From the NCBI GenBank assembly GCA_002069765.1, contig MWBZ01000005.1, positions 42,214 through 106,213 of the forward strand: a stretch of DNA of 64,000 nucleotides. The letters are read 5' to 3'. The position numbers were made by a program, and so were the translations under genes. The notes beneath the pieces are model-generated. The model was not told where the DNA came from and ran no database searches. It saw only the letters and a program-made list of their open reading frames with translations. Positions within the stretch are counted from its first letter, which is position 1. Each line of letters starts with the position of its first letter. Shown one piece after another: positions 19,029-45,297 of this stretch. This DNA is from a bacterium ADurb.Bin243. GTDB taxonomy: Bacteria > Muiribacteriota > UBA9980.

Positions 19029-19730
19029 ATGGGTAAAGCTCTGGACAAAGAAATCGAAAGCCTCAAGGGCATGATAAACGAGATGACCATAATCGCGCGC
19101 GCGATGGTGAAAGACGTTATGGAAGGGCTCGTCAGGCGCGATAAAACCTTCTTCGCTAAAATCGGGGAAATGGAAGAGAGCGTCAACAGGTACGAAATGG
19201 AATCGGACGATTTGAGCTGGAAGATAATAGCCCTGCGCCAGCCTATGGGCGCGGACCTTCGTTTCGTTCTCGCCGCCCGCAAAATAAATTCGGTTTTAGA
19301 GCGCACCGCCGACGAGGCCGTAAATATATTTAAAAAAGTGGAATATTTGATATCGGTCCCCGAGCTCAAGCCGCTGATCGATCTTCCCCGCATGACCGAG
19401 ATGGCTATGGACGCGCTAACGCTCGCGGTGGAAACTATTTACAGCGCCGACATGGACGCCGCCCGCGAGATATGCATCAACGACAGCGTTATAGATAATT
19501 TGCGCGACCAGATACACCGCGAGCTTCTCACCTATATGCAGGAATCGCCCGATAACATACAGCGCGCCCTCAATCTGATGATGATTGCCAAAAGTCTCGA
19601 AAGAATAGGCGATATGGCCACCGACATAGCGGAGGACGCCATATATTACCATCAGGGCAAGGATATCCGCCACCACGCCGAAAGCGACGAGGAATTCAAG
19701 AAAAATTATAAAAAGAAAGAAAAGAAATAA
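19029..19730 (+). CDS. phoU: Phosphate uptake regulator.
   Basis: Two PhoU repeats (MGADLRFVLAARKINSVLERTADEAVNI and ALNLMMIAKSLERIGDMATDIAEDAIYY). GGAG RBS before the ATG at 19029. Confidence 0.9.
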   Translation: MGKALDKEIESLKGMINEMTIIARAMVKDVMEGLVRRDKTFFAKIGEMEESVNRYEMESDDLSWKIIALRQPMGADLRFVLAARKINSVLERTADEAVNIFKKVEYLISVPELKPLIDLPRMTEMAMDALTLAVETIYSADMDAAREICINDSVIDNLRDQIHRELLTYMQESPDNIQRALNLMMIAKSLERIGDMATDIAEDAIYYHQGKDIRHHAESDEEFKKNYKKKEKK

Positions 19731-27708: not shown

Positions 27709-30138
27709 TTGCTTATGATTGAAACCCGTTCTAACGACTTCGGACATGCGGATAGGAAAATAGCCGTCAGCTTCGGCGCGCTGGTTCTCGCGCTCATGCT
27801 GACCGTAGCGGTTGTAGCTTATTTTCTGTACACCCAGCTTCAGTCAAAGGAAGAAGACCGGCTATGCGGCGCGCTTGCGTCTATGTTAAGCGAATCTATA
27901 AGCAAAGTAAGTTTTTCAGGCAAATACCACATGCGCCTGCTTGTAGAGCAAATGAAAGCCCGGATACCGGTTATCGAATCGATATCGGTCGAAAACGCCG
28001 ACGGACTTATAATAGCTCACAGCGATCCGGCGTTCAACGAAAAGCGTGAAGACGGCGCCGGAGTAAAATTGACCCGCGAATGCCTGGATAGCAAAAAAAT
28101 GGTCGTTTCGGAGCACATCCATAACTCGAAGATAATAAAAGAAGTGCTGATGCCTTACCATGGCGGTTTCGATTCGCAGGTTCTTGGCGTCGTCCGCCTC
28201 GGCGTAAACGTCGAAGACGCCCGCGCCGAACAGCGAGCTAATTTCGTCAAGCTTCTGGAACTGATTACCGTGCTTATGTGCGTCGCTATTTTAATAGTTT
28301 TCGCTCTCAGCCGTTATTTTGGAAGGACCGTCCGCGAACTGGCGATGCAGCTTCAGGCCATACTCGATAATTCGCCCGCCCTTATCTATATGAAAGACAG
28401 GGCCGGCCGCTATCTATTTGTAAATCGTCACTGGACGCAACTTTTTCAAACCACCAACGAAACGGCTCGCGGAAAAACCGACCTCGATATTTTTCCTCGC
28501 GAAACCGCTCTTAAATTAATGGAAAACGATCGGATGGTATTTGAAAGCGGCCGTCTCACGGAACTGGAAGAGAACGCTTTTATAGAAGGAGGCATGAGGT
28601 ATTATCAGAGCATTAAAGTCGCGCTGAAAGGCAATGACGGAAATTGCTACGCGCTTTGCGGAATATCCACCGATATTACCGAAAAAAAACGTTCCGAAGA
28701 AGAGCTGCTCGGCCATCGCGAGCATCTTGAAGAGCTGGTCAGGGAACGAACCGTTCAGCTAGCTATGGCGAAGGAAAACGCGGAGGCGGCCAACCGCGCC
28801 AAATCTTTATTTCTGGCCAATATGTCACATGAATTCAGAACGCCGATGAACGCCATATTAGGCTTTGCGCATATTATGGCTCGCGACGCCGGCGTCACTC
28901 TGAGGCAGAAAGAAAACCTCGATATCATAATTAAATCAGGCGAACATCTTCTTACGCTGATTAACGATATACTGGATATCGCCAAAATCGAATCGGGCAG
29001 AATGCAGGTGGAACTTTCCGACTTCGATCTCGGCGAACTTACCGGCGATCTCATGGATATGCTCCGCGTCAAGGTCGAAGCTAAAGGTCTGAAGCTGGTC
29101 TTAGACCAGTCTTCTTCTTTCCCGCGTTTCGTGCGAACCGATATGGCCAAGCTCAGGCAGATAATCATCAATCTCGTCGGAAACGCAGTAAAATTCACGG
29201 ACCAGGGTCAAATAACCATAAAATTAGGCGTGTGCTCTATTTTGAACGGCCGGGCGGGGAATTTTTTGAAATTTGAAATACAGGATACGGGTATCGGTAT
29301 GGACGAAACGGGAGTAAAAAATATTTTCAAGCCTTTCGTTCAGCTCGGGCAGCACGAAGGGACCGGCCTCGGCCTCGCCATAACCCAGCAATATATAAAT
29401 TTAATGGGCGGTTTCATAGAAGTGGAAAGCCAGCCGGGCAAGGGTTCTAAATTCATTTTCGCCGTGTCTTTCGAACCGGCCGAAAGGGATAAAATTAAGA
29501 TGTCGGCTCCGCCGCGCGGCCGCGTGCTGCAAATAGAGAACGCTAAAAATTATAAAGTGCTTATAGTGGAAGATCAGCCGGAAAACAGGCTGCTCATGCA
29601 AAATCTGCTTTCGCCTTTCGGCTTTCAAATTGCCGAAGCTTCCGACGGAATCGAAGGAGTGGCCTTGTTTGAAAAGTTCAGCCCGCACATCATATTTATA
29701 GATCGAAGGATGCCGGGCATAGACGGAATCGAGGCGGTATGTAAAATACGCGGAAAATCGGGGGCGGACGGCGTGATAATAATAGCGGTTACGGCCCACG
29801 CTTTTAAAGAAGAGCGTCAGCAGATGATAGACGCAGGCTGCGACGATTTCATAAGCAAGCCTTTCGGCGCCGACGCGATTTTCGACGTTCTGGAAAAATA
29901 TCTCAAGCTCCGGGTTATACGCGATCAAACCGAGTCGCCGGACGCCGAGAACACTTTAAAACCGGGCGCGGAAGAGTTGTCGAAACTGCCCGCGAAAATG
30001 CTGCGTGAACTCGAAGACGCTCTGATAAAGCTCGATATGAAAAAAATCGAACAATTGATAAGCGACATAAGCGTTAAAATTGCTTGCCGATACGCTTATG
30101 GAAGAAGGATACGAAGTGCGGCCCACGTCCAGCGGTGA
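27709..30138 (+). CDS. Hybrid sensor histidine kinase (TM - sensor - PAS - HisKA - HATPase - REC - short C-terminal helical tail).
   Basis: H-box SHEFRTPMNAILGF. G-boxes DTGIGMD and GLGLAI. REC with VLIVEDQPENR...IFIDRRMPGIDG...ISKPF. Confidence 0.85.
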   Translation: MLMIETRSNDFGHADRKIAVSFGALVLALMLTVAVVAYFLYTQLQSKEEDRLCGALASMLSESISKVSFSGKYHMRLLVEQMKARIPVIESISVENADGLIIAHSDPAFNEKREDGAGVKLTRECLDSKKMVVSEHIHNSKIIKEVLMPYHGGFDSQVLGVVRLGVNVEDARAEQRANFVKLLELITVLMCVAILIVFALSRYFGRTVRELAMQLQAILDNSPALIYMKDRAGRYLFVNRHWTQLFQTTNETARGKTDLDIFPRETALKLMENDRMVFESGRLTELEENAFIEGGMRYYQSIKVALKGNDGNCYALCGISTDITEKKRSEEELLGHREHLEELVRERTVQLAMAKENAEAANRAKSLFLANMSHEFRTPMNAILGFAHIMARDAGVTLRQKENLDIIIKSGEHLLTLINDILDIAKIESGRMQVELSDFDLGELTGDLMDMLRVKVEAKGLKLVLDQSSSFPRFVRTDMAKLRQIIINLVGNAVKFTDQGQITIKLGVCSILNGRAGNFLKFEIQDTGIGMDETGVKNIFKPFVQLGQHEGTGLGLAITQQYINLMGGFIEVESQPGKGSKFIFAVSFEPAERDKIKMSAPPRGRVLQIENAKNYKVLIVEDQPENRLLMQNLLSPFGFQIAEASDGIEGVALFEKFSPHIIFIDRRMPGIDGIEAVCKIRGKSGADGVIIIAVTAHAFKEERQQMIDAGCDDFISKPFGADAIFDVLEKYLKLRVIRDQTESPDAENTLKPGAEELSKLPAKMLRELEDALIKLDMKKIEQLISDISVKIACRYAYGRRIRSAAHVQR

Positions 30139-31540
30139 ACGCGCTTTGATGGCGGTTCAGGCCCAGCAGCCCGAATTGATAATTCTCGATTTACGAATGC
30201 CGGGCATGGACGGTTTCGAAGTCTGCCGAAGGCTGAAAGAGCAGCCTGAAATTCGTGACATACCTGTTTTATTTTTGAGCGCGGCTTCCGAAGTCGAAGA
30301 GCGCGTTAAAGGCTTTTCAATGGGAGCCGTAGATTTCATAACCAAGCCTTTTCAGCGTGATGAAATGCTGGCCAGAGTCAGGACTCATCTTCAATTGAGC
30401 CGCCTTCAAAACAGGCTGGAAGCTATGGTCGGGCAGAGAACGGCCGAGCTCAACGTTTCAAACGATTGCCTTCAAAAAGAACTCGAGGAAAAAATCGCCG
30501 CGGAAGAATCTTTGAAGGAAAGCGAACAACGGTTCAGGCAGATGATAGAAATGTCGCCTTATGCGGTGGCGTTGAGCGACGCGGAAGACAACATAGAATA
30601 TCTGAACGGTAAATTCGTCGAAACCTTCGGGTATGGCCCGCAAGAGCTGACTACGGTAAAAAAATGGTGGCTTCTTGCACATCCCGATGAAAAATACCGC
30701 GAATCGATTATCGCTCAATGGCGCGAGAAAATAGACATGGCTTTTAAAAACCATCGCGAAGTCGAGCCTACTACCGTCGATGTTACATGTAAAGACGGTG
30801 AAGTTAAAACAATAGAAATATCGGCTTCGCTGATCGGCGATAAAGCGCTCGTAGTTTTTCACGACGTTACCGAAAGAAAACAAAGCGAGGAAAGGCTTAA
30901 AACATCTTTAAAAGAGAAAGAAACGCTTCTGCGGGAATTGTATCACAGGACAAAAAATAATATGCAGGTTATTTGTTCGCTTCTGACTTTAAAAATGATC
31001 GATTCCGACGACGAAAAATTAAAAGACGAGTTTCGCGAAATGGAAAGCAGGATACATTCCATGGCCCTGGTGCATCAGAAATTATACAGTTCCAAAAACC
31101 TTTCGATTATTAATCTAGGAGAATATATCAGCGAACTTTCCGGCGCGCTCTTGAGCAACCGGAAAACGCCGCCGGAAAAGGTTACGATAGACGAGAACGT
31201 CGACGATATAAATATATTTATCGACGTTGCCGTGCCTTTAGGGCTTATAATCAACGAGCTTATATCCAACGCTTTGAAACATGCGTTTCCCGGGGGAAAA
31301 ACCGGCAGAATAACCATAACGGGAAAAAAATATGAAGATGAAATAATAGAACTGAAAATCGCCGACGACGGAATCGGGCTCACGCCCGGAATCGATCTTA
31401 GAAAGGCATGCGGCCTTGGAATGAAAAGCGTGTTCGCGCTAGCCGAATATCAGATGCGCGCCGCAATAAGCTATGAATCTTCCTGCGGATTATCATTCAC
31501 TCTTAAATTTAAGAACGCTATGCATGGCGAACGCTTATAA
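30080..31540 (+). CDS. REC (lacking the first beta-strand as annotated) - PAS - HisKA_2/HATPase histidine kinase. The start is uncertain (TTG at 30080 or ATG at 30098) and overlaps the upstream ORF by 41-59 nt.
   Basis: ILDLRMPGMDG...LSAASE...ITKPF REC core; PAS; HRTKNNMQVICSLLTL (HisKA_2 H-box); ATP-lid region. Confidence 0.7.
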   Translation: MLADTLMEEGYEVRPTSSGERALMAVQAQQPELIILDLRMPGMDGFEVCRRLKEQPEIRDIPVLFLSAASEVEERVKGFSMGAVDFITKPFQRDEMLARVRTHLQLSRLQNRLEAMVGQRTAELNVSNDCLQKELEEKIAAEESLKESEQRFRQMIEMSPYAVALSDAEDNIEYLNGKFVETFGYGPQELTTVKKWWLLAHPDEKYRESIIAQWREKIDMAFKNHREVEPTTVDVTCKDGEVKTIEISASLIGDKALVVFHDVTERKQSEERLKTSLKEKETLLRELYHRTKNNMQVICSLLTLKMIDSDDEKLKDEFREMESRIHSMALVHQKLYSSKNLSIINLGEYISELSGALLSNRKTPPEKVTIDENVDDINIFIDVAVPLGLIINELISNALKHAFPGGKTGRITITGKKYEDEIIELKIADDGIGLTPGIDLRKACGLGMKSVFALAEYQMRAAISYESSCGLSFTLKFKNAMHGERL

Positions 31541-31619: not shown

Positions 31620-31649
31620 TTGACAAAATTAACCGTCTTGTGATAAAAT
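31620..31649 (+). promoter_or_regulatory. Sigma70-like promoter (TTGACA-17nt-ATAAAAT) upstream of the Cys-rich gene.
   Basis: ttgaca aaattaaccgtcttgtg ataaaat read directly. GGAGG lies 9 nt before the ATG at 31687. Confidence 0.5.
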
Positions 31650-31686
31650 TCACTCATCAAAAAAAAATTATTTTGGAGGATATTCA

Positions 31687-32298
31687 ATGAAAAAACAGTT
31701 TTCCATCATCGCGGTAGTTCTTTTAGTTTCCTTTATGTTCGTAGCAGCGGCGTTCGCCGGCGACGAAATGTATTCCGACAAATCGGTTAAAGCGCTTTTC
31801 TCGAAAAAAGTCAATGAAAAACCCACCAGCCTCGTTCATTTCGCTAAAAAACAGGCTCCCTGCGCTACAGAATGCACCGCTTGCCCCGGCTGCCCTTCAA
31901 AAGCCGAAGCAAAACCCGAAGTTAAAGCTGAATGCGTAAAATGCAATGCTGCTCCCTGCAAATGCGAAGTTAAAGCCGTTTGCAAATGCGGCGTAGCTGA
32001 ATGCAAATGCGGATGCATCTCCGGCGCTCCCTGCTCATGCGAAGCGAAACTCGAAGCTCCTAAAGTTGAAAACACCGCAGTAGAAAACGCTCCCGTTGAA
32101 AAAAAAGAAGTTAAAAAAGTTAAAAAATCTAAAAAATCAAAAAGATCGAAAAAAGCTAAAAAAGCCGCCGCTGAAAAAGCAGCTGCTGAAAAAGTAGAAG
32201 CTCCTAAAGCCGAAGCTGAAAAAACGGAAGCTCCCAAAGCCGAAGAAGCTCCTAAAGCCGAAGAAGCTCCTAAAGTAGAAGCTACCGAAAAAAAATAG
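31687..32298 (+). CDS. Secreted low-complexity protein: signal peptide, a Cys-rich block (17 Cys in ~75 aa), a Lys-rich block and PKAEEA repeats.
   Basis: MKKQFSIIAVVLLVSFMFVAAAFA signal. CATECTACPGCPS...CVKCNAAPCKCEVKAVCKCGVAECKCGCISGAPCSC. KKVKKSKKSKRSKKAKK. EAPKAEEAPKAEEAPKVE. Confidence 0.6.
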   Translation: MKKQFSIIAVVLLVSFMFVAAAFAGDEMYSDKSVKALFSKKVNEKPTSLVHFAKKQAPCATECTACPGCPSKAEAKPEVKAECVKCNAAPCKCEVKAVCKCGVAECKCGCISGAPCSCEAKLEAPKVENTAVENAPVEKKEVKKVKKSKKSKRSKKAKKAAAEKAAAEKVEAPKAEAEKTEAPKAEEAPKAEEAPKVEATEKK

Positions 32299-32455
32299 TT
32301 TTATAGTTATTTAGAGTATCGATCTTAAATAACGGAAAAAGCGCTTTTTAGATATTCTGAAGAGCGCTTTTTCAATAAGGACAATATAATTTTTCGTATG
32401 ATGCAGTCCCGATTATTCCAAGCGCGGAGAAAACGCGCCGGAACGGAGAGTTGAT

Positions 32456-33193
32456 TTGAGTAATAACGCTAAATTCAAAGGATTTTCAAAACTCGCATTC
32501 GGTTTTCTGGCCGGACTCAAAGAAAACAACAACAAGGAATGGTTCGAAAGCAACCGCGCGACTTATCAGAACGAACTGATCATGCCAATGCGTAACCTGG
32601 TGAACGATTTAAGCGAGTTTATTATAAGCATGGATTACAATCTGGACGTGACTCCCGCAATAGGAAAAACCATTTCGCGCATCTATAAAGACGCCCGAAG
32701 GCTCCGCGGCGGTCCCCCTTATAAAAAAAGCATGTGGATAGCTTTTAAAAGGCCTCTCGAGGAATGGAAAGAATCCCCTACTTTTTATATAGAAATTTTT
32801 TCGGATTCATATAGTTATGGAATGGGATTTTACAGCGCTCCAAAAGATATGATGGAACTGTTCCGCGAGCAATTAGCGAAAAACCCGGCCGAATTTTTAG
32901 ACGCCATTTCGTTTTACAAAAATGAAAAAAAATTCGAGCTGTACGGCGATTATTATAAAAAGATAAAGCCTGACGGCATCGCGCCTGAGGTTTTTGAATG
33001 GTATAGAAAAAAAAGCTTTTATCTTTCGTGCGATAACAACCCCGTCGACGGCGTTATTACTTCGCCGAAATTCGTCGACGTCGTGACTCGCGATTTTGCG
33101 AGGCTAGCGCCGCTTTACCATTATTTATGGAAATTAAAAACTAGGGCCCGCGCGGCCAATGAAAAATTCATTAACAAAACTTATTATACATAA
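32456..33193 (+). CDS. DUF2461/TIGR02453-family-like conserved hypothetical protein.
   Basis: FGFLAGLKENNNKEWFESNRATYQ is the characteristic N-terminal motif of that family. Tentative. Confidence 0.5.
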   Translation: MSNNAKFKGFSKLAFGFLAGLKENNNKEWFESNRATYQNELIMPMRNLVNDLSEFIISMDYNLDVTPAIGKTISRIYKDARRLRGGPPYKKSMWIAFKRPLEEWKESPTFYIEIFSDSYSYGMGFYSAPKDMMELFREQLAKNPAEFLDAISFYKNEKKFELYGDYYKKIKPDGIAPEVFEWYRKKSFYLSCDNNPVDGVITSPKFVDVVTRDFARLAPLYHYLWKLKTRARAANEKFINKTYYT

Positions 33194-39129: not shown

Positions 39130-39262
39130 AATAATATTATATTACAAATCCCGTTAATTTTCAATTGGATTTCATTATAGATAATTTTATTTTTATATGC
39201 ATATTTTTCGAGTTTTATCCAGAACTTCGGTACTTGAATCTAAAGCCGATAATATTTATACC

Positions 39263-40363
39263 ATGAATATTTTTAAAAAGGAACTTTCGATAAATAAAAT
39301 TTTTTTTATACTAATATCGTGCTTCGCTTTTATTTTATGCGGCCATCGGGCCGAGGCCGGACAAAAGGCGGATTCCGTAATAACGCCGGCGTTCGGAATT
39401 ATTTTAAAATCTTATATAAAAGTTCCTTCCGGAGAGATATTTCTTGGAGATATCTGCGATTTTAAAACCGAGCCAGGCTTTAAAACCGATCTTGAAAAAA
39501 TAAAAAATATTCAACTGGGTTTCGCCCCGCCGCCTTTCGTCGAAAGGCGCATATATAAATTCGAGACGGAAAACGCGATACGGGGAAAACTGGAATTTCC
39601 TTCCGGCTGCGGCTATTCGATAGGAGGAGCGGATTACTGCAGGGTAACGTCTTTCGCCGGAGGCGAAACTGACGGCAAAGCGAAATCACTTTTAAAAAAA
39701 GAACTGGAAAATAAGATAGGCGAACTTTTCATTAAAAAATATTCGGGCGAGTTCGAAATCGGCGCTAAAGATAAAATCGCCGTTTCGATCACGGGCGGCC
39801 TGGGCCGTGAAGCCGTAAAAAAATTAACCGCGTCGGCCGAAGCCAGGATAGATATTGTTGGTTATAAATCATCAGCGGCCGATATCGTCGTTTCTGCGGA
39901 AAATGTCACGCCGCTGAAATTAACGGCTAAAATAACCAGAAAAACTCCCGCCGCGGCGGCGCGCGAAAACCTTTCAAAAAATACGGTTATAGATATGAAT
40001 AAAATAATGACTCGTGAAATCGAAATTTTTGCCGAAAAATATGGTGAGTTATTTTTAATAAACGATTCGATCGAAAATGATCGGGAATTGTCTAAAATCG
40101 CCGCCGAAGGACTTGAGTTAATCAGAAACGTGCGCGCGGGCGAAATTTTGAAAAAAAGCTTTTTTAACAAGAAAATCCTTGTAAAAGCAGGGCAGACGAT
40201 TGTTTTACATTTGAGGAATAAACGATCTAGTATTTCTTTTTCGGCGACGGCGTCTAAAAATGCCGGCGAAGGAGATATTATAGAAGCGGTGAACCCGAGG
40301 ACGCGCAAAAAATATAAGGCCGTAGTGAGCGGCGAAGGGACCGCGGAAGCCGTTGAAAATTAA
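39263..40363 (+). CDS. flgA: Flagellar basal-body P-ring formation chaperone.
   Basis: Signal peptide. C-terminal SAF-like domain VRAGEILKKSFF...VKAGQTIVLHL...GDIIEAVNPRTRKKYKAVVSGEG. Sits directly upstream of flgH-flgI. Confidence 0.65.
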   Translation: MNIFKKELSINKIFFILISCFAFILCGHRAEAGQKADSVITPAFGIILKSYIKVPSGEIFLGDICDFKTEPGFKTDLEKIKNIQLGFAPPPFVERRIYKFETENAIRGKLEFPSGCGYSIGGADYCRVTSFAGGETDGKAKSLLKKELENKIGELFIKKYSGEFEIGAKDKIAVSITGGLGREAVKKLTASAEARIDIVGYKSSAADIVVSAENVTPLKLTAKITRKTPAAAARENLSKNTVIDMNKIMTREIEIFAEKYGELFLINDSIENDRELSKIAAEGLELIRNVRAGEILKKSFFNKKILVKAGQTIVLHLRNKRSSISFSATASKNAGEGDIIEAVNPRTRKKYKAVVSGEGTAEAVEN

Positions 40364-40498
40364 TTCGCGCGCGCCGCAAGGGTAAATCCGGGAGATCCCC
40401 GGAAAAAAAGAAAAACGGGTAATCATAATAAAACATAGCACCAGTCGCAGCATTGTCGTAATTTAGTCGGAGTATTTTTAAATTATATCGGAGGCAGA

Positions 40499-41110
40499 AT
40501 GTATCGCAGCGCTTTTAAGAGATTTTTGATTTTATCGTTGGTAAGTTTCTGTGTTATTGGATTTGCGGCGGCCGAACTCAAAGCCGAATCGCTCTGGCGC
40601 GAAGCCGAAGAGGAATCGGCCGGACAGTCGATATTTTCAGAAACAAAGGGGCATAAAATAGGCGATATAATAACCATTTTGATAATAGAAAATTCTACGG
40701 CCGTGCAGAAAGCCACGACCCAGAATAAAAAATCTTCCACGGTAGGCGCGAAAGCCGGAACGGGTCCTTTGAGTTTTATCCCAAATATTTCCAGCAGCAC
40801 TTCGGGCGATTTTTCCGGCGACGGCTCCACGACGCGTTCGGGAACCATAACGGCCAAAATCTCCGCCCGCGTCACTAAGATTTACCCCAACGGCAACCTT
40901 GCCATAGAAGGCAAGCGCAGCATAAGAATAAACGACGAAGTGCAGGACATTACGATAAACGGCATCGCGCGCACGCTCGATATAACATCTGATAATACGA
41001 TATTATCAACATTTTTAGCCGACGCCCAGATCAAGTATAAAGGAAACGGCGTCGTAGGGACCGTTAACAGGCCGGGAGTAATCAAAAGAGTATCCGATTG
41101 GCTTTTTTAA
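40499..41110 (+). CDS. flgH: Flagellar L-ring protein.
   Basis: GDIITILIIENSTA...NGNLAIEGKRSIRINDEVQDITINGIARTLDI... Confidence 0.85.
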   Translation: MYRSAFKRFLILSLVSFCVIGFAAAELKAESLWREAEEESAGQSIFSETKGHKIGDIITILIIENSTAVQKATTQNKKSSTVGAKAGTGPLSFIPNISSSTSGDFSGDGSTTRSGTITAKISARVTKIYPNGNLAIEGKRSIRINDEVQDITINGIARTLDITSDNTILSTFLADAQIKYKGNGVVGTVNRPGVIKRVSDWLF

Positions 41111-41150
41111 CGGCGACCGAAAAGAAAAAATATAGTTAAATATAGGCGGT

Positions 41151-42311
41151 ATGCAAATGGTAAAAACCCAAAAACGATCGAACGGAAAGAAATTGATGAA
41201 AGCTCTTGCGGCTGTTTTATGCGCGGCTTTTATCTTAAATTTTTTATCGGTGTCTTATGCGGGAATAATAACGCGCATCAAAGATATCGCCAGAATCGGC
41301 GGAGTGCGCGAAAACCAGCTTGTGGGTTACGGCGTGGTCGTAGGCCTTGAGGGCAGCGGCGACAAGAACATCATGACCGCGCAATCGATCGTAAATATGC
41401 TCAAGTCATTCGACGTTACGCTGGACCCGAAGACTTTGAAGGCCCAGAATTCCGCCGCCGTAATGGTTACGGCCAATATTCTTCCGTTCATGAGCGAAGG
41501 CGATAAGCTCGACGTCGTGGTTTCGTCGATAGGCGACGCCAAAAGCATTCAGGGCGGAGTTCTTTTGCAGACGCCGCTAAAGGGCGCCAACGGCAAGGTT
41601 TACGCCGTAGCGCAGGGGCCGGTTTCTCTCGGGCAGCTGGGTTCGAGCCAGCAGTCGGCGGGCGGAGTCAAACTTCATCCCCTGGTCGCCAGGATCCCCG
41701 GCGGGGCGCTTATAGAAAGAGAAATATCGAGCGATTTTGTCGCTGACGAAAAGATCGAGATCGTTTTAAATAAAAAGGATTTTTCCACCGCCAATGCCGT
41801 GTCTGCGGCCATCTGCGACAAGTTCGGCGAAGGGTTCGCCAGGGCGAAAAACGCCGGCGTAGTTACCGTGAAGGTCCCTTCGAGCTTCGAAGACAACGTG
41901 GTGGGATTTCTGGCCGCCGTCGAATCGCTCAGCGTCCAGACCGACAACGCTTCTAAAATCGTTATAAACGAAAAGACCGGCACGATAGTGCTGGGCGACG
42001 ACGTGAGAATAAGCCCCGTGGCTATTTCTCATAACGGAATAAAACTCAAAGTCGCGGAAGCTCCCGCTGGCGCTCCTGTTCAGGCTCAGGCTGGCGCGGC
42101 GCAAAATCAGCCGCCGGCGCCGGGTAATGCGGCAGCGGCGCGCGCGAGAGGCGGCGGAGAAAAGAATATAATTTACCTTAACGCCGGCTCCACCGTGCGC
42201 GATATGGTGGACGCCCTTAATGAAATGGGCGCGTACGCCAAGGACATTATCGCGATTATCCAGGCCATGAAGGCCGCCGGCGCCATCCAGAGCGAAATAG
42301 AAGTAATTTAG
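41151..42311 (+). CDS. flgI: Flagellar P-ring protein.
   Basis: RIKDIARIGGVRENQLVGYGVVVGLEGSGD...LQTPLKGANGKVYAVAQGPVSLG. Confidence 0.9.
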   Translation: MQMVKTQKRSNGKKLMKALAAVLCAAFILNFLSVSYAGIITRIKDIARIGGVRENQLVGYGVVVGLEGSGDKNIMTAQSIVNMLKSFDVTLDPKTLKAQNSAAVMVTANILPFMSEGDKLDVVVSSIGDAKSIQGGVLLQTPLKGANGKVYAVAQGPVSLGQLGSSQQSAGGVKLHPLVARIPGGALIEREISSDFVADEKIEIVLNKKDFSTANAVSAAICDKFGEGFARAKNAGVVTVKVPSSFEDNVVGFLAAVESLSVQTDNASKIVINEKTGTIVLGDDVRISPVAISHNGIKLKVAEAPAGAPVQAQAGAAQNQPPAPGNAAAARARGGGEKNIIYLNAGSTVRDMVDALNEMGAYAKDIIAIIQAMKAAGAIQSEIEVI

Positions 42312-43561: not shown

Positions 43562-45262
43562 TTACCATTCTTTGCCTTCCATGACGAGGTTTTTAACCAG
43601 TTCATATCTTTCGGGGCTCATCTGCCTCATGGATTTTCCGTAAACTACATAATAAGCGATTGCTTCGGCCATATCTTCCATTACGTTGCTGCCGCCGTAC
43701 TGCGAAATGGCCGGAGGATTCGCGCCGCCTGCGCTGCCCGAGTAACCGTTTCTGCCGGACCAGAACTTTTGCTGAAACTGGTTCTGGAGTTCGTAAGTTT
43801 GAAAGTGAAAGCAGTGGCCCATTTCGTGGATAAGCACGCGCCTGTAATCGCAGTTCAAACCGAGAGGCGTAATAGTTATGCTCGAACCGCTGGCGAAGCC
43901 GCCTATATTGCTCATGCCGGGGAACATTCCTTCGGCGGAGCCTTTGGCGAGCGTGAGGGTTTTTCTTACGAAGCTCTGCGGAAGCTCCGATAATATGTCC
44001 ATGGTCGTTTTCAATTCCTGCTCTGTCCATACGTATTTTGGCGCTTCGCCGTCGACTATGGTGATGCCGAACTTTTCCTGGATTTGCTTGATGAGCTCTT
44101 TGGCTCCGGGCGTGCGGTTATCGACGGTGTTGTCTTTCGGAGTGTTATCGCCGTTCATCTGACGGTTTTGCTGCTTGATCATTTCGTCGAACGGGTCTTT
44201 GAAGTTGTTGTTGACGTTCTGGTTATTGTTATTTGGCGGAAGCGGGGGAATCGGAGGGAACTGCGGCTGCCCGGATATATCGTTATCGTTGTTTTTCGGC
44301 GGCTGCGGAACCGGAGGCGCCGGCGGGTTTACGTTTTGATTGTTGCCGCCCTGGTTCTGCACGTTGCGTCCGTTATCGTCCTGCGGTTTTTTGGGGTTGC
44401 GGTTCAATATGTCCCAGGGGTTCGAGCCTATATTTTTTCCGCTGTTTATGTCGTTGTTTACGTTGCCGTCGTTTGCGCCGTTATTGCCCGGATCGGGGAA
44501 ATCGTCGTCTTTGTTGCCCTGCTGATTGTTAACGCCGCCGTCATTAACGTTATTTTTGCCGTCGTCGTTGTTTGGGATTAAATTATCGCCGCCGTTGTTG
44601 CCGTCGAAGATTTTATTCAAATCGGCGATTTCTTTTGCCGTGTCATCGAGAGTTTTTTCGATATTTTTGAATATGTTTTCGAGTTTTTTGTTGAACGATT
44701 TGAACATATTTTCAAAAATAGATTCCAGGTCTTTGAAAAAATTGGAAAAAGCGTTTTCCAGGCTGCGCGCCAGGTCGAATCCGCCGTCTTCGACTTCGTT
44801 TCCGCCGCCGTTTATATTTTTATTATCGTTATCGTTTTTCGCGCCGTTATCGGCCTTGTCGGCGTTATTTCCGCCGTCGGCATCGCCATTGTCTTTTGAG
44901 CCGTCATTATTTTTTTCGCCGGCCATGCTTTTAGCTTCGATTATTTTGCCGATCTTTTCCGCCAGATCGCTGGAATAGCCGACGATTTTTTCCCCGCCGA
45001 CGATATAGGTCGGATAAAGTTTTACGCCGTATTTGGAGCCGGCCCCGAGGTCCGCTTCGATGAATTCGGCGCGGTCGCCATATTTTTCTCTGGCCTGTTC
45101 GACCAGAGGCTTCGCTTTTTCGCACCACTGGCAGCTCGGCGTCGAAAAGATCAGGACCTCGACCTTATCGCCCGCCGCCGTGGATACTGCCGGATAAAAT
45201 AAAAATGAAAACATGAGGACTGCGAACAATAAAAAACCGTAACATTTTTTCATAAACAACAC
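43562..45262 (-). CDS. Secreted three-part protein: an N-terminal thioredoxin/glutaredoxin-fold domain (CQWC), a ~330-aa low-complexity linker (Asn/Asp/Gly/Lys-rich, then Asn/Gln/Pro-rich), and a C-terminal zincin-like HExxH domain.
   Basis: Signal peptide MKKCYGFLLFAVLMFSFLFYPAVSTAAG. VLIFSTPSCQWCEKAKP...YPTYIVGG. The linker ...NNDNDISGQPQFPPIPPLPPNNNNQNVNNNF.... C-terminal LIHEMGHCFHFQ...NVMEDMAEAIAYY (HExxH plus a downstream Glu). Confidence 0.6.
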   Translation of the reverse strand: MLFMKKCYGFLLFAVLMFSFLFYPAVSTAAGDKVEVLIFSTPSCQWCEKAKPLVEQAREKYGDRAEFIEADLGAGSKYGVKLYPTYIVGGEKIVGYSSDLAEKIGKIIEAKSMAGEKNNDGSKDNGDADGGNNADKADNGAKNDNDNKNINGGGNEVEDGGFDLARSLENAFSNFFKDLESIFENMFKSFNKKLENIFKNIEKTLDDTAKEIADLNKIFDGNNGGDNLIPNNDDGKNNVNDGGVNNQQGNKDDDFPDPGNNGANDGNVNNDINSGKNIGSNPWDILNRNPKKPQDDNGRNVQNQGGNNQNVNPPAPPVPQPPKNNDNDISGQPQFPPIPPLPPNNNNQNVNNNFKDPFDEMIKQQNRQMNGDNTPKDNTVDNRTPGAKELIKQIQEKFGITIVDGEAPKYVWTEQELKTTMDILSELPQSFVRKTLTLAKGSAEGMFPGMSNIGGFASGSSITITPLGLNCDYRRVLIHEMGHCFHFQTYELQNQFQQKFWSGRNGYSGSAGGANPPAISQYGGSNVMEDMAEAIAYYVVYGKSMRQMSPERYELVKNLVMEGKEW

Positions 45263-45297
45263 CTCTCTAATTTATTACTTGTGTAAATTTAACTTTT

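Follow-up and report, generated by a model that had tools for sequence, protein, structure and literature searches.

A small family of cysteine-rich, putatively exported proteins in Candidatus Wallbacteria and its possible place in the cell envelope

What could an uncultured bacterium use a small, cysteine-rich and apparently exported protein for, when that protein resembles no described family? The question is raised by an open reading frame (ORF) at positions 31687–32298 of a 64,000-nucleotide stretch of contig MWBZ01000005.1 (positions 42,214 to 106,213 of the forward strand; bacterium ADurb.Bin243, assembly GCA_002069765.1), referred to below as the window. In a first-pass annotation, made from the letters of the window alone, the product had been described as a secreted protein with metallothionein-like cysteine pairs, a basic block and a repetitive tail. 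The ORF is a genuine protein-coding gene that forms a transcription unit of its own, and its product belongs to a small family from Candidatus Wallbacteria. We tentatively prefer to read it as an abundant envelope protein that may bind metals through its thiols and whose lysines may fasten it to anionic polymers of the envelope.

The reading frame and its expression signals

The gene and its control signals are located as follows.

31687..32298, plus strand: coding sequence, ATG start, 203 amino acids plus stop
31620..31649, plus strand: sigma-70-type promoter, with TTGACA at 31620–31625, an 18-nt spacer, TG at 31641–31642 and TAAAAT at 31644–31649
31675..31679, plus strand: Shine-Dalgarno sequence GGAGG, read from the sequence, 7 nt 5' of the ATG
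32335..32373, plus strand: intrinsic-terminator-like hairpin, an 18-bp stem running into a U run

The ORF was found exactly where the first-pass annotation had placed it, with the same length of 203 amino acids. Its sequence is of low complexity and repetitive, and it is overlapped on the minus strand by a second ORF of 133 amino acids (31836..32237), properties that would suit a chance frame in repetitive DNA or a true gene lying in another frame or strand. Comparison with relatives makes such an explanation scarcely credible. Relative to the closest homologue (L012, 93% identical), differences at the first, second and third codon positions number 7, 2 and 12, and the third position is again dominant among differences from more distant relatives. 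All indels in four pairwise comparisons with relatives are in frame, the start codon, ribosome-binding site, promoter hexamers and signal peptide are kept in relatives of only 40–60% identity, and the terminator is placed after the stop codon. Because of the third-position bias, the in-frame indels and the conserved start signals, the frame is genuine and a non-coding artefact, the outcome against which the annotation had cautioned, is excluded. The minus-strand ORF is a shadow of the coding frame, a by-product of its richness in GCT, GAA and AAA.

The strong promoter and GGAGG noted in the annotation were both confirmed; the element listed there as TTGACA-17-ATAAAAT is the same site, read here as an 18-nt spacer followed by TAAAAT. 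A promoter scan matched the consensus at 11 of 12 positions and also identified the extended –10 TG. Both the –35 hexamer and TGnTAAAAT are kept in four divergent family loci, whereas the spacer and upstream DNA are not, and GGAGG or GGAG is present in all aligned relatives. Folding of the RNA from 32296–32385 gave –30.4 kcal/mol (z-score –6.2), and none of 200 shuffled sequences folded as well. A simple terminator scan had missed the hairpin at 32335–32373 because the U run also belongs to the stem. Having a promoter and a downstream terminator hairpin of its own, the Cys-rich gene is therefore a single-gene unit.

Codon usage in the gene is strongly biased. AAA and GAA are used at 100%, GCT reaches 55% compared with 17% in the window background, GTT and GTA together reach 95% compared with 51%, and CCG falls to 0% compared with 44%. 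A homologue on contig L005, which lies near a ribosomal-protein cluster, could be set beside those genes directly: GCT stands at 64% in the homologue, 56% in the ribosomal-protein genes and 30% in other genes, and CCG at 0%, 23% and 44%, respectively. A bias that equals or exceeds that of ribosomal-protein genes argues well for high and probably constitutive expression.

A family restricted to Candidatus Wallbacteria

Relatives of the Cys-rich protein are few. A word-indexed search of 5.8 billion proteins returned two. HMMER, run exhaustively with a profile against 1.84 billion cluster representatives, returned five, of which four are Cys-rich, and with a further profile search and a scan of the species genomes in GTDB the total rose to approximately nine Cys-rich members. 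No further members were found in a scan of metagenome contigs. All members with a taxon label come from metagenome-assembled genomes (MAGs) of Candidatus Wallbacteria, including the unplaced MAG UBA6123. The genes next to the homologue in that MAG are 79–91% identical to their counterparts in the window, which is therefore itself part of a Wallbacteria genome. Apart from the widely sampled P0004 organism, the samples in question are groundwater and activated sludge, and the settings are also given as digesters and as anoxic or low-oxygen. As far as its sequences tell, the family is small, restricted to this phylum and without known relatives.

In literature searches, neither a periplasmic or secreted metallothionein of this kind from a bacterium nor a paper on Wallbacteria that deals with the present protein came to light. 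Within the window, a six-frame scan showed no other credible Cys-rich coding region. The two other ORFs of 203 amino acids (5566–6177 and 40499–41110) were considered as paralogues and rejected as unrelated, the second being FlgH.

Protein organization and predicted export

The following segments can be distinguished in the protein.

31687..31758, plus strand: Sec-type signal peptide, residues 1–24 MKKQFSIIAVVLLVSFMFVAAAFA, with cleavage predicted before GDE
31759..31860, plus strand: N-terminal motif of the mature protein, residues 25–58 GDEMYSDKSVKALFSKKVNEKPTSLVHFAKKQAP, with no Pfam match
31861..32040, plus strand: Cys-rich region, residues 59–118, with 15 Cys in 60 residues, no aromatics and no CC
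31981..32040, plus strand: conserved 7-Cys core within this region, residues 99–118 CKCGVAECKCGCISGAPCSC, of the pattern C-x-C-G-x3-C-x-C-G-C-x5-C-x-C
32101..32163, plus strand: polybasic block, residues 139–159 KKEVKKVKKSKKSKRSKKAKK, with a 9-nt DNA period
32164..32295, plus strand: Ala/Glu/Lys/Pro repeat tail, residues 160–203, consisting of AAEKAAAEK and then EAPKAE units, and ending in TEKK

The claim of a signal peptide was upheld by inspection. An MKK n-region is followed by an 18-residue hydrophobic core and then by AFA and G, giving the basic n-region, h-region and small residues at –3 and –1 that characterize Sec substrates of signal peptidase I. All nine Cys-rich members and one Cys-free relative (P0005) share a small-x-small site (A/V-x-A) with G or S after it. 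No twin-arginine motif is present, the n-region reading MKKQ, and there is no lipobox, as the AFA/GDE site has no Cys at +1; the protein is thus not a lipoprotein, a possibility that the annotation had flagged for prediction. Sec-dependent export is accordingly the predicted route.

The annotation had counted 17 cysteines in approximately 75 residues, a figure that is corrected here to 15 in 60. The region is 25% Cys and otherwise rich in Lys, Ala, Gly, Ser and Pro. Its cysteines form one C-x3-C-x2-C-x2-C motif, five CxC (CKC three times, CGC and CSC) and three CxxC, with no CC at all. In 20,000 shuffles of the region 3.5 CC pairs were expected and their absence had a probability of P = 0.009, or P = 0.005 when combined with at least the observed number of CxC plus CxxC; the arrangement is not random. 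At the DNA level the region is assembled from short in-frame repeats, and the sequence TGCAAATGCG occurs in it three times and nowhere else in the window.

Only the 7-Cys core is conserved across the family as a Cys module, and it is complete in seven of nine members. Members of the P0003 subgroup have CC in place of its first CxC, and degenerate forms of the core are seen in P0006 and as the first of two copies in P0007; a second copy is also found in the L013 member. Around the core, Cys modules have been gained, lost, duplicated and moved between members, as can be seen from the C-x3-C-x2-C-x2-C module, which lies before the core in the window protein and after it in P0002. Cysteine totals for the nine members are 15, 15, 11, 19, 22, 27, 22, 11 and 13, odd in seven cases.

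The basic block and the EAPKAE-type repeats are present as first described. The block occupies the same position in all members, with charge kept and sequence not, and includes His in the P0003 and P0004 subgroups. Mature proteins of the family carry a net charge of +12 to +24 with an isoelectric point (pI) of ~9.0–9.4, the window protein lying at ~+12 and ~9.0. Repeat periods of 9, 15, 18 and 30 nt are found in the gene, those of 15, 18 and 30 nt in the tail, and all repeat spacings are multiples of 3; the 18-nt unit is present in 2.7 copies with 96% matches. The annotation had suggested that the 3' end be checked for slippage, and the 93%-identical homologue indeed has exactly one 18-nt EAPKAE unit fewer, which is direct evidence of repeat slippage. 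AlphaFold2, run on an alignment of seven sequences, gave a mean predicted local distance difference test score of 45.6 and a predicted template modelling score of 0.18, with the signal peptide, a helix, as the sole confident segment and no confident fold beyond it. Such a result would be expected for an intrinsically disordered protein or for one that folds with its ligand, as an apo metal-thiolate protein would.

Two possible roles: metal-thiolate binding or disulfide cross-linking

The protein would be placed in an envelope with two membranes, a point on which flagellar genes of the window bear.

39197–42311 of the window, plus strand: flgA, flgH (L-ring) and flgI (P-ring)

The flgH and flgI genes show that the genome encodes a flagellum spanning an outer membrane, and gene content thus indicates a two-membrane organism; Wallbacteria have been reported among the OmpM-bearing diderm Terrabacteria (10.1101/2021.05.31.446380). 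Under the reading that we tentatively prefer, the gene product would be constitutive, highly expressed, Sec-exported and largely disordered, and after cleavage the mature protein of ~179 residues would stay in the envelope. Its cysteine third, with 15 thiols in CxC and CxxC arrays and the 7-Cys core, would fold only around soft metals (Zn, Cu(I), Ni, Cd or Fe) to give metal-thiolate clusters, and would act in the manner of a metallothionein as an extracytoplasmic buffer of metal and possibly of oxidants. The poly-Lys block would anchor the protein electrostatically to anionic envelope polymers or membranes, and the EAPKAE tail would be a flexible spacer. That the protein is exported, stays in the envelope and binds metal, and that the lysine block and tail act as proposed, are all things that we infer only from sequence, and the surface-layer association suggested in the annotation would be of the same kind.

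Several features speak in favour of metallothionein-like behaviour. As in metallothioneins (SmtA/BmtA, PF02069, and the eukaryotic proteins), the Cys region is 25% Cys, with CxC and CxxC arrays and no aromatics, is predicted to be unfolded without ligand, and is built of modules that are duplicated and shuffled between relatives. Cysteine number is variable and mostly odd, which would be awkward for a fixed intramolecular disulfide fold, and His in the basic block of two subgroups can be counted on the same side. Export by Sec rather than Tat (twin-arginine translocation) would imply that any metal is acquired outside the cytoplasm, and in the anoxic habitats from which members come thiols would persist.

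The metallothionein-like label of the annotation stands as far as composition goes but does not extend to family membership, and here the evidence begins to weigh against metal binding. Whole-protein scans of Pfam and NCBIfam at E ≤ 10 returned noise only (E > 0.1), with no metal-binding family among the matches, and Pfam had no match for the N-terminal YSDK motif or for the Cys region of any of three members when these were scanned alone. Metallothionein profiles, including the SmtA-type PF02069, gave no match at E ≤ 10 with the full protein or with the Cys regions of three members, so that the comparison with metallothionein families recommended in the annotation came back empty in Pfam, NCBIfam and PDB. 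The impression recorded there that no homologue family comes to mind was thereby borne out, also for the Cys region taken alone. Single pairwise BLASTP comparisons gave E = 0.34 against human MT2A and E = 0.004 against Synechococcus SmtA; both were rejected as compositional matches, and the segment matched by SmtA is missing from P0002. In a PDB sequence search with the full protein and two Cys regions, only chance matches were obtained (E ≥ 0.5: the factor X epidermal growth factor-like domain, cytochrome c3 and an E2 linker), the cytochrome c3 match at E = 0.55 being noise.

Further points against metal binding come from size, location and regulation. Metallothioneins are smaller than ~10 kDa and nearly all Cys domain, whereas the Cys region makes up one third of the ~179-residue mature protein, which has in addition an N-terminal motif, a poly-Lys block and a repeat tail. 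To our knowledge, bacterial metallothioneins are cytosolic and metal-induced, whereas the Cys-rich protein has a Sec signal peptide and a promoter that looks constitutive. A metal-responsive operator was looked for in the promoters of the aligned family loci and rejected, only the –35 and –10 elements being conserved; hexamers conserved without an operator would be less expected of a metallothionein induced for detoxification than of an abundant protein made constitutively. Neither metal-resistance nor metal-sensor genes adjoin the gene in the window, where Dsb and maturation genes are likewise absent from its flanks, and the upstream genes differ between relatives. Finally, in an oxidizing envelope the thiols would form disulfides instead.

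This last point leads to a structural alternative, in which the protein would form an intermolecular disulfide network that stiffens the envelope or outer membrane in the manner of chlamydial OmcA/OmcB, its lysines binding anionic components. Disulfide bonds are usual in Cys-rich proteins outside the cytoplasm, odd numbers of cysteines would leave thiols available for links between molecules, and a strong constitutive promoter, ribosomal-protein-like codon bias and fast divergence (46% identity, compared with 79–91% for neighbouring genes) are all typical of major structural or surface proteins of the envelope. OmcA (PF03503) and its disulfide-linked outer membrane complex are similar in being small, abundant, exported and very Cys-rich in a two-membrane bacterium. 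The Cys-rich protein differs from OmcA in having no lipobox or lipid anchor, in belonging to another phylum and in its added polybasic and repeat modules, and no match to Chlam_OMP3 or to another Cys-rich envelope family was found by hidden Markov model. The anoxic or low-oxygen provenance of the organisms (groundwater, digesters and sludge) also stands against it. Mature exported proteins in the window are often odd in Cys (3, 3, 5, 7, 13 and 13), a small sample without even-number bias and a weak hint that the organism may not rely on structural disulfides. Disulfide cross-linking, the leading alternative to metal binding, is possible but somewhat doubtful.

Other Cys-containing families could be compared by motif. 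The protein lacks the RR of a Tat cofactor protein and the CxxCxxCxxxCP of an iron–sulfur ferredoxin, and its 3-2-2 Cys spacing is not conserved among members; CxxCH, as in c-type cytochromes, is absent, the single His (residue 51) lying outside the Cys region. On these comparisons the protein belongs to none of the metallothionein, OmcA, Lpp, TonB/TolA, ferredoxin and cytochrome c families.

Should metal-thiolate binding be correct, the protein might conceivably be the first extracytoplasmic protein of metallothionein type in bacteria: constitutive, Sec-exported and disordered, with CxC clusters that bind metals or metal-sulfide nuclei in the envelope, where it would be held by poly-Lys and perhaps by its C-terminal Lys. 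We regard this more specific proposal as speculative. If true, the speciation of metals at the cell surface would be under the control of the protein, which might also govern how biogenic metal-sulfide nanoparticles aggregate. More generally, metal binding would mean that metallothionein-type chemistry extends beyond the cytoplasm in bacteria; a secreted, constitutively abundant protein of this kind would be unusual. A protein that probably ranks among the most abundant of the envelope in uncultured Wallbacteria, which are found in aquifers, sludge and digesters, would then be relevant to the buffering of metals and to the handling of metal-sulfide nanoparticles in anoxic environments. A structural role, through disulfides or tethering, would instead add an uncharacterized component to what little is understood of envelopes in diderm Terrabacteria. 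For a tiny, lineage-restricted family whose function is read from composition, the immediate impact is modest.

The N-terminal module and tail as a possible tether

Conservation outside the Cys region raises a further alternative. The N-terminal motif of the family reads (E)MYSDKxxKxLFxKxxxxKPxxLxHF, with S30, D31, K32, L37, F38 and K45 invariant across members. A YSDK module is present in two copies in P0005, which has no Cys region, and because it occurs there without cysteines it is an independent unit. P0005 itself (L011, 600–1064) is a secreted protein of 154 amino acids with two tandem YSDKxIKxxYEK...KPxFVMEHLxSQAGG modules, each followed by a helix-like LSxEE..KFEL segment; its only Pfam match, SNaCT13, lies just below the cut-off (26.7 bits versus 27).

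The protein could on these grounds be an envelope tether or spacer, in which YSDK docks to one layer, the poly-Lys block or terminal KK attaches to another, whether by charge or, as in Lpp, through a covalent bond to peptidoglycan, and the tail is a wall-spanning rod, the cysteines being secondary. Besides the conserved, Cys-independent YSDK module, the C terminus favours this view: every one of the nine members closes with ...E(x)KK or ...ETK, even though the tail before this end varies and cannot be aligned between subgroups. High-expression signals agree with it as well, and the tail (AEKAAAEK, EAPKAE) resembles in composition, although in composition only, the linkers of TonB and TolA and the Pro/Lys/Glu repeats of Gram-positive wall-spanning segments. 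Wallbacteria are without Lpp and Pal and use OmpM, Lpp being confined to some Gammaproteobacteria (10.1101/2021.05.31.446380).

Like Braun's lipoprotein Lpp, the Cys-rich protein is small, exported, very highly expressed to judge by its codons, and ends in a conserved lysine; unlike Lpp, it has no lipobox, no helical coiled coil and no sequence similarity to it, and its tail is proline-rich and disordered in the AlphaFold model. There is neither a lipid anchor nor, because the cleavage site is conserved, an uncleaved transmembrane anchor, and the uncleaved N-terminal anchor, C-terminal domain or LPXTG that would make it comparable to TonB, TolA or Gram-positive wall proteins is missing. A C-terminal K is not improbable in proteins of 20–25% Lys that are related by descent, and tethering does not account for the conservation of the 7-Cys core, which within the mature protein is second only to that of YSDK. 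We consider a tether doubtful as the principal function, but it would be compatible with either the metal-thiolate or the disulfide model.

Divergence and gene neighbourhood

Compared with its neighbours, the Cys-rich protein diverges much faster. Between the window and UBA6123 (L013), the DUF2461 protein is 79% and the ABC-2 permease 91% identical, whereas the Cys-rich protein is 46% identical over residues 1–123 and unalignable beyond. Only one neighbour of the gene is consistent, and it is found at the following positions.

Window 32456–33193 (plus strand); L004 2410–3135; L013 8769–9509; L014 4331–5071: DUF2461 gene

This TIGR02453-type gene lies directly downstream on the same strand in all four loci and, in the window, beyond the terminator of the Cys-rich gene. 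Upstream neighbours vary: the window, L003 and L012 have two-component kinases, L014 has an ATP-binding cassette (ABC) exporter, L005 has larE, larB, larC and a rubredoxin gene, and L013 has an alpha-amylase-like gene, whose C-terminal residues, judged by eye, closely resemble the end of a truncated upstream ORF in L001. A functional link to the two-component genes was rejected, as the upstream genes differ among relatives.

A last alternative that can be judged from the neighbourhood is that of a secreted cationic antimicrobial or inter-bacterial effector, defensin-like or similar to a Sec-dependent bacteriocin. The net charge and pI given above would suit it, as would a Cys-rich, secreted and fast-evolving product and the ABC transporters encoded close by in the window and in L014. 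However, the gene has no consistently linked immunity gene or dedicated exporter, DUF2461 being the only conserved neighbour; each family locus examined has a single copy in a semi-conserved chromosomal position, and a mature protein of ~179 residues with long, low-complexity acidic–basic repeats is unlike known bacteriocins. Such an effector is improbable, and a cationic antimicrobial role in general unlikely.

Two side observations were made on the upstream genes. In L005 (6095–9890), the P0004 gene directly follows larE/larB/larC-like genes for nickel-pincer cofactor synthesis (Ni_insertion domain) and a rubredoxin gene, and it is also near the cluster of ribosomal-protein genes, secY and rpoA; the nickel adjacency is a weak hint of a metal role and may be coincidental. 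In the window (27709–31540, plus strand), a hybrid histidine kinase (sCache, PAS, HisKA, HATPase, REC) overlaps in the ORF list with the next kinase (REC-PAS-HisKA_2/HWE). Since the first kinase ORF of L012 is longer (820 amino acids) and the second starts earlier (504 amino acids), there may be a frameshift or an alternative start near 30080–30138.

Other genes in the window

Two paralogous three-gene modules are found on the minus strand (46574–50631 and 52115–56060), each encoding two proteins with prepilin-type N termini (e.g. GFTVVEIIVV and FSFVEIMVAIV) and a protein of ~900 amino acids with 13 Cys and no Pfam match. Between them (50672–52008) lies a pair consisting of an extracytoplasmic function sigma factor and a FecR-like anti-sigma factor. 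The duplicated modules may represent a pseudopilin or type IV-pilus-related system.

A phosphate-uptake cluster of the order pstS-pstC-pstA-pstB-pstB-phoU occupies 14794–19730 (plus strand). Its two ABC ATPase ORFs (17357–18151 and 18036–18932) overlap by ~115 nt, and the listed start of the second is probably too early. Sizeable ORFs with no Pfam match are present at 5566–6177, 6892–8523, 43562–46461 and 56224–57948. Some ORFs of this kind, e.g. those of 543, 566 and 574 amino acids, have signal-peptide-like N termini, and they look like lineage-specific exported proteins.

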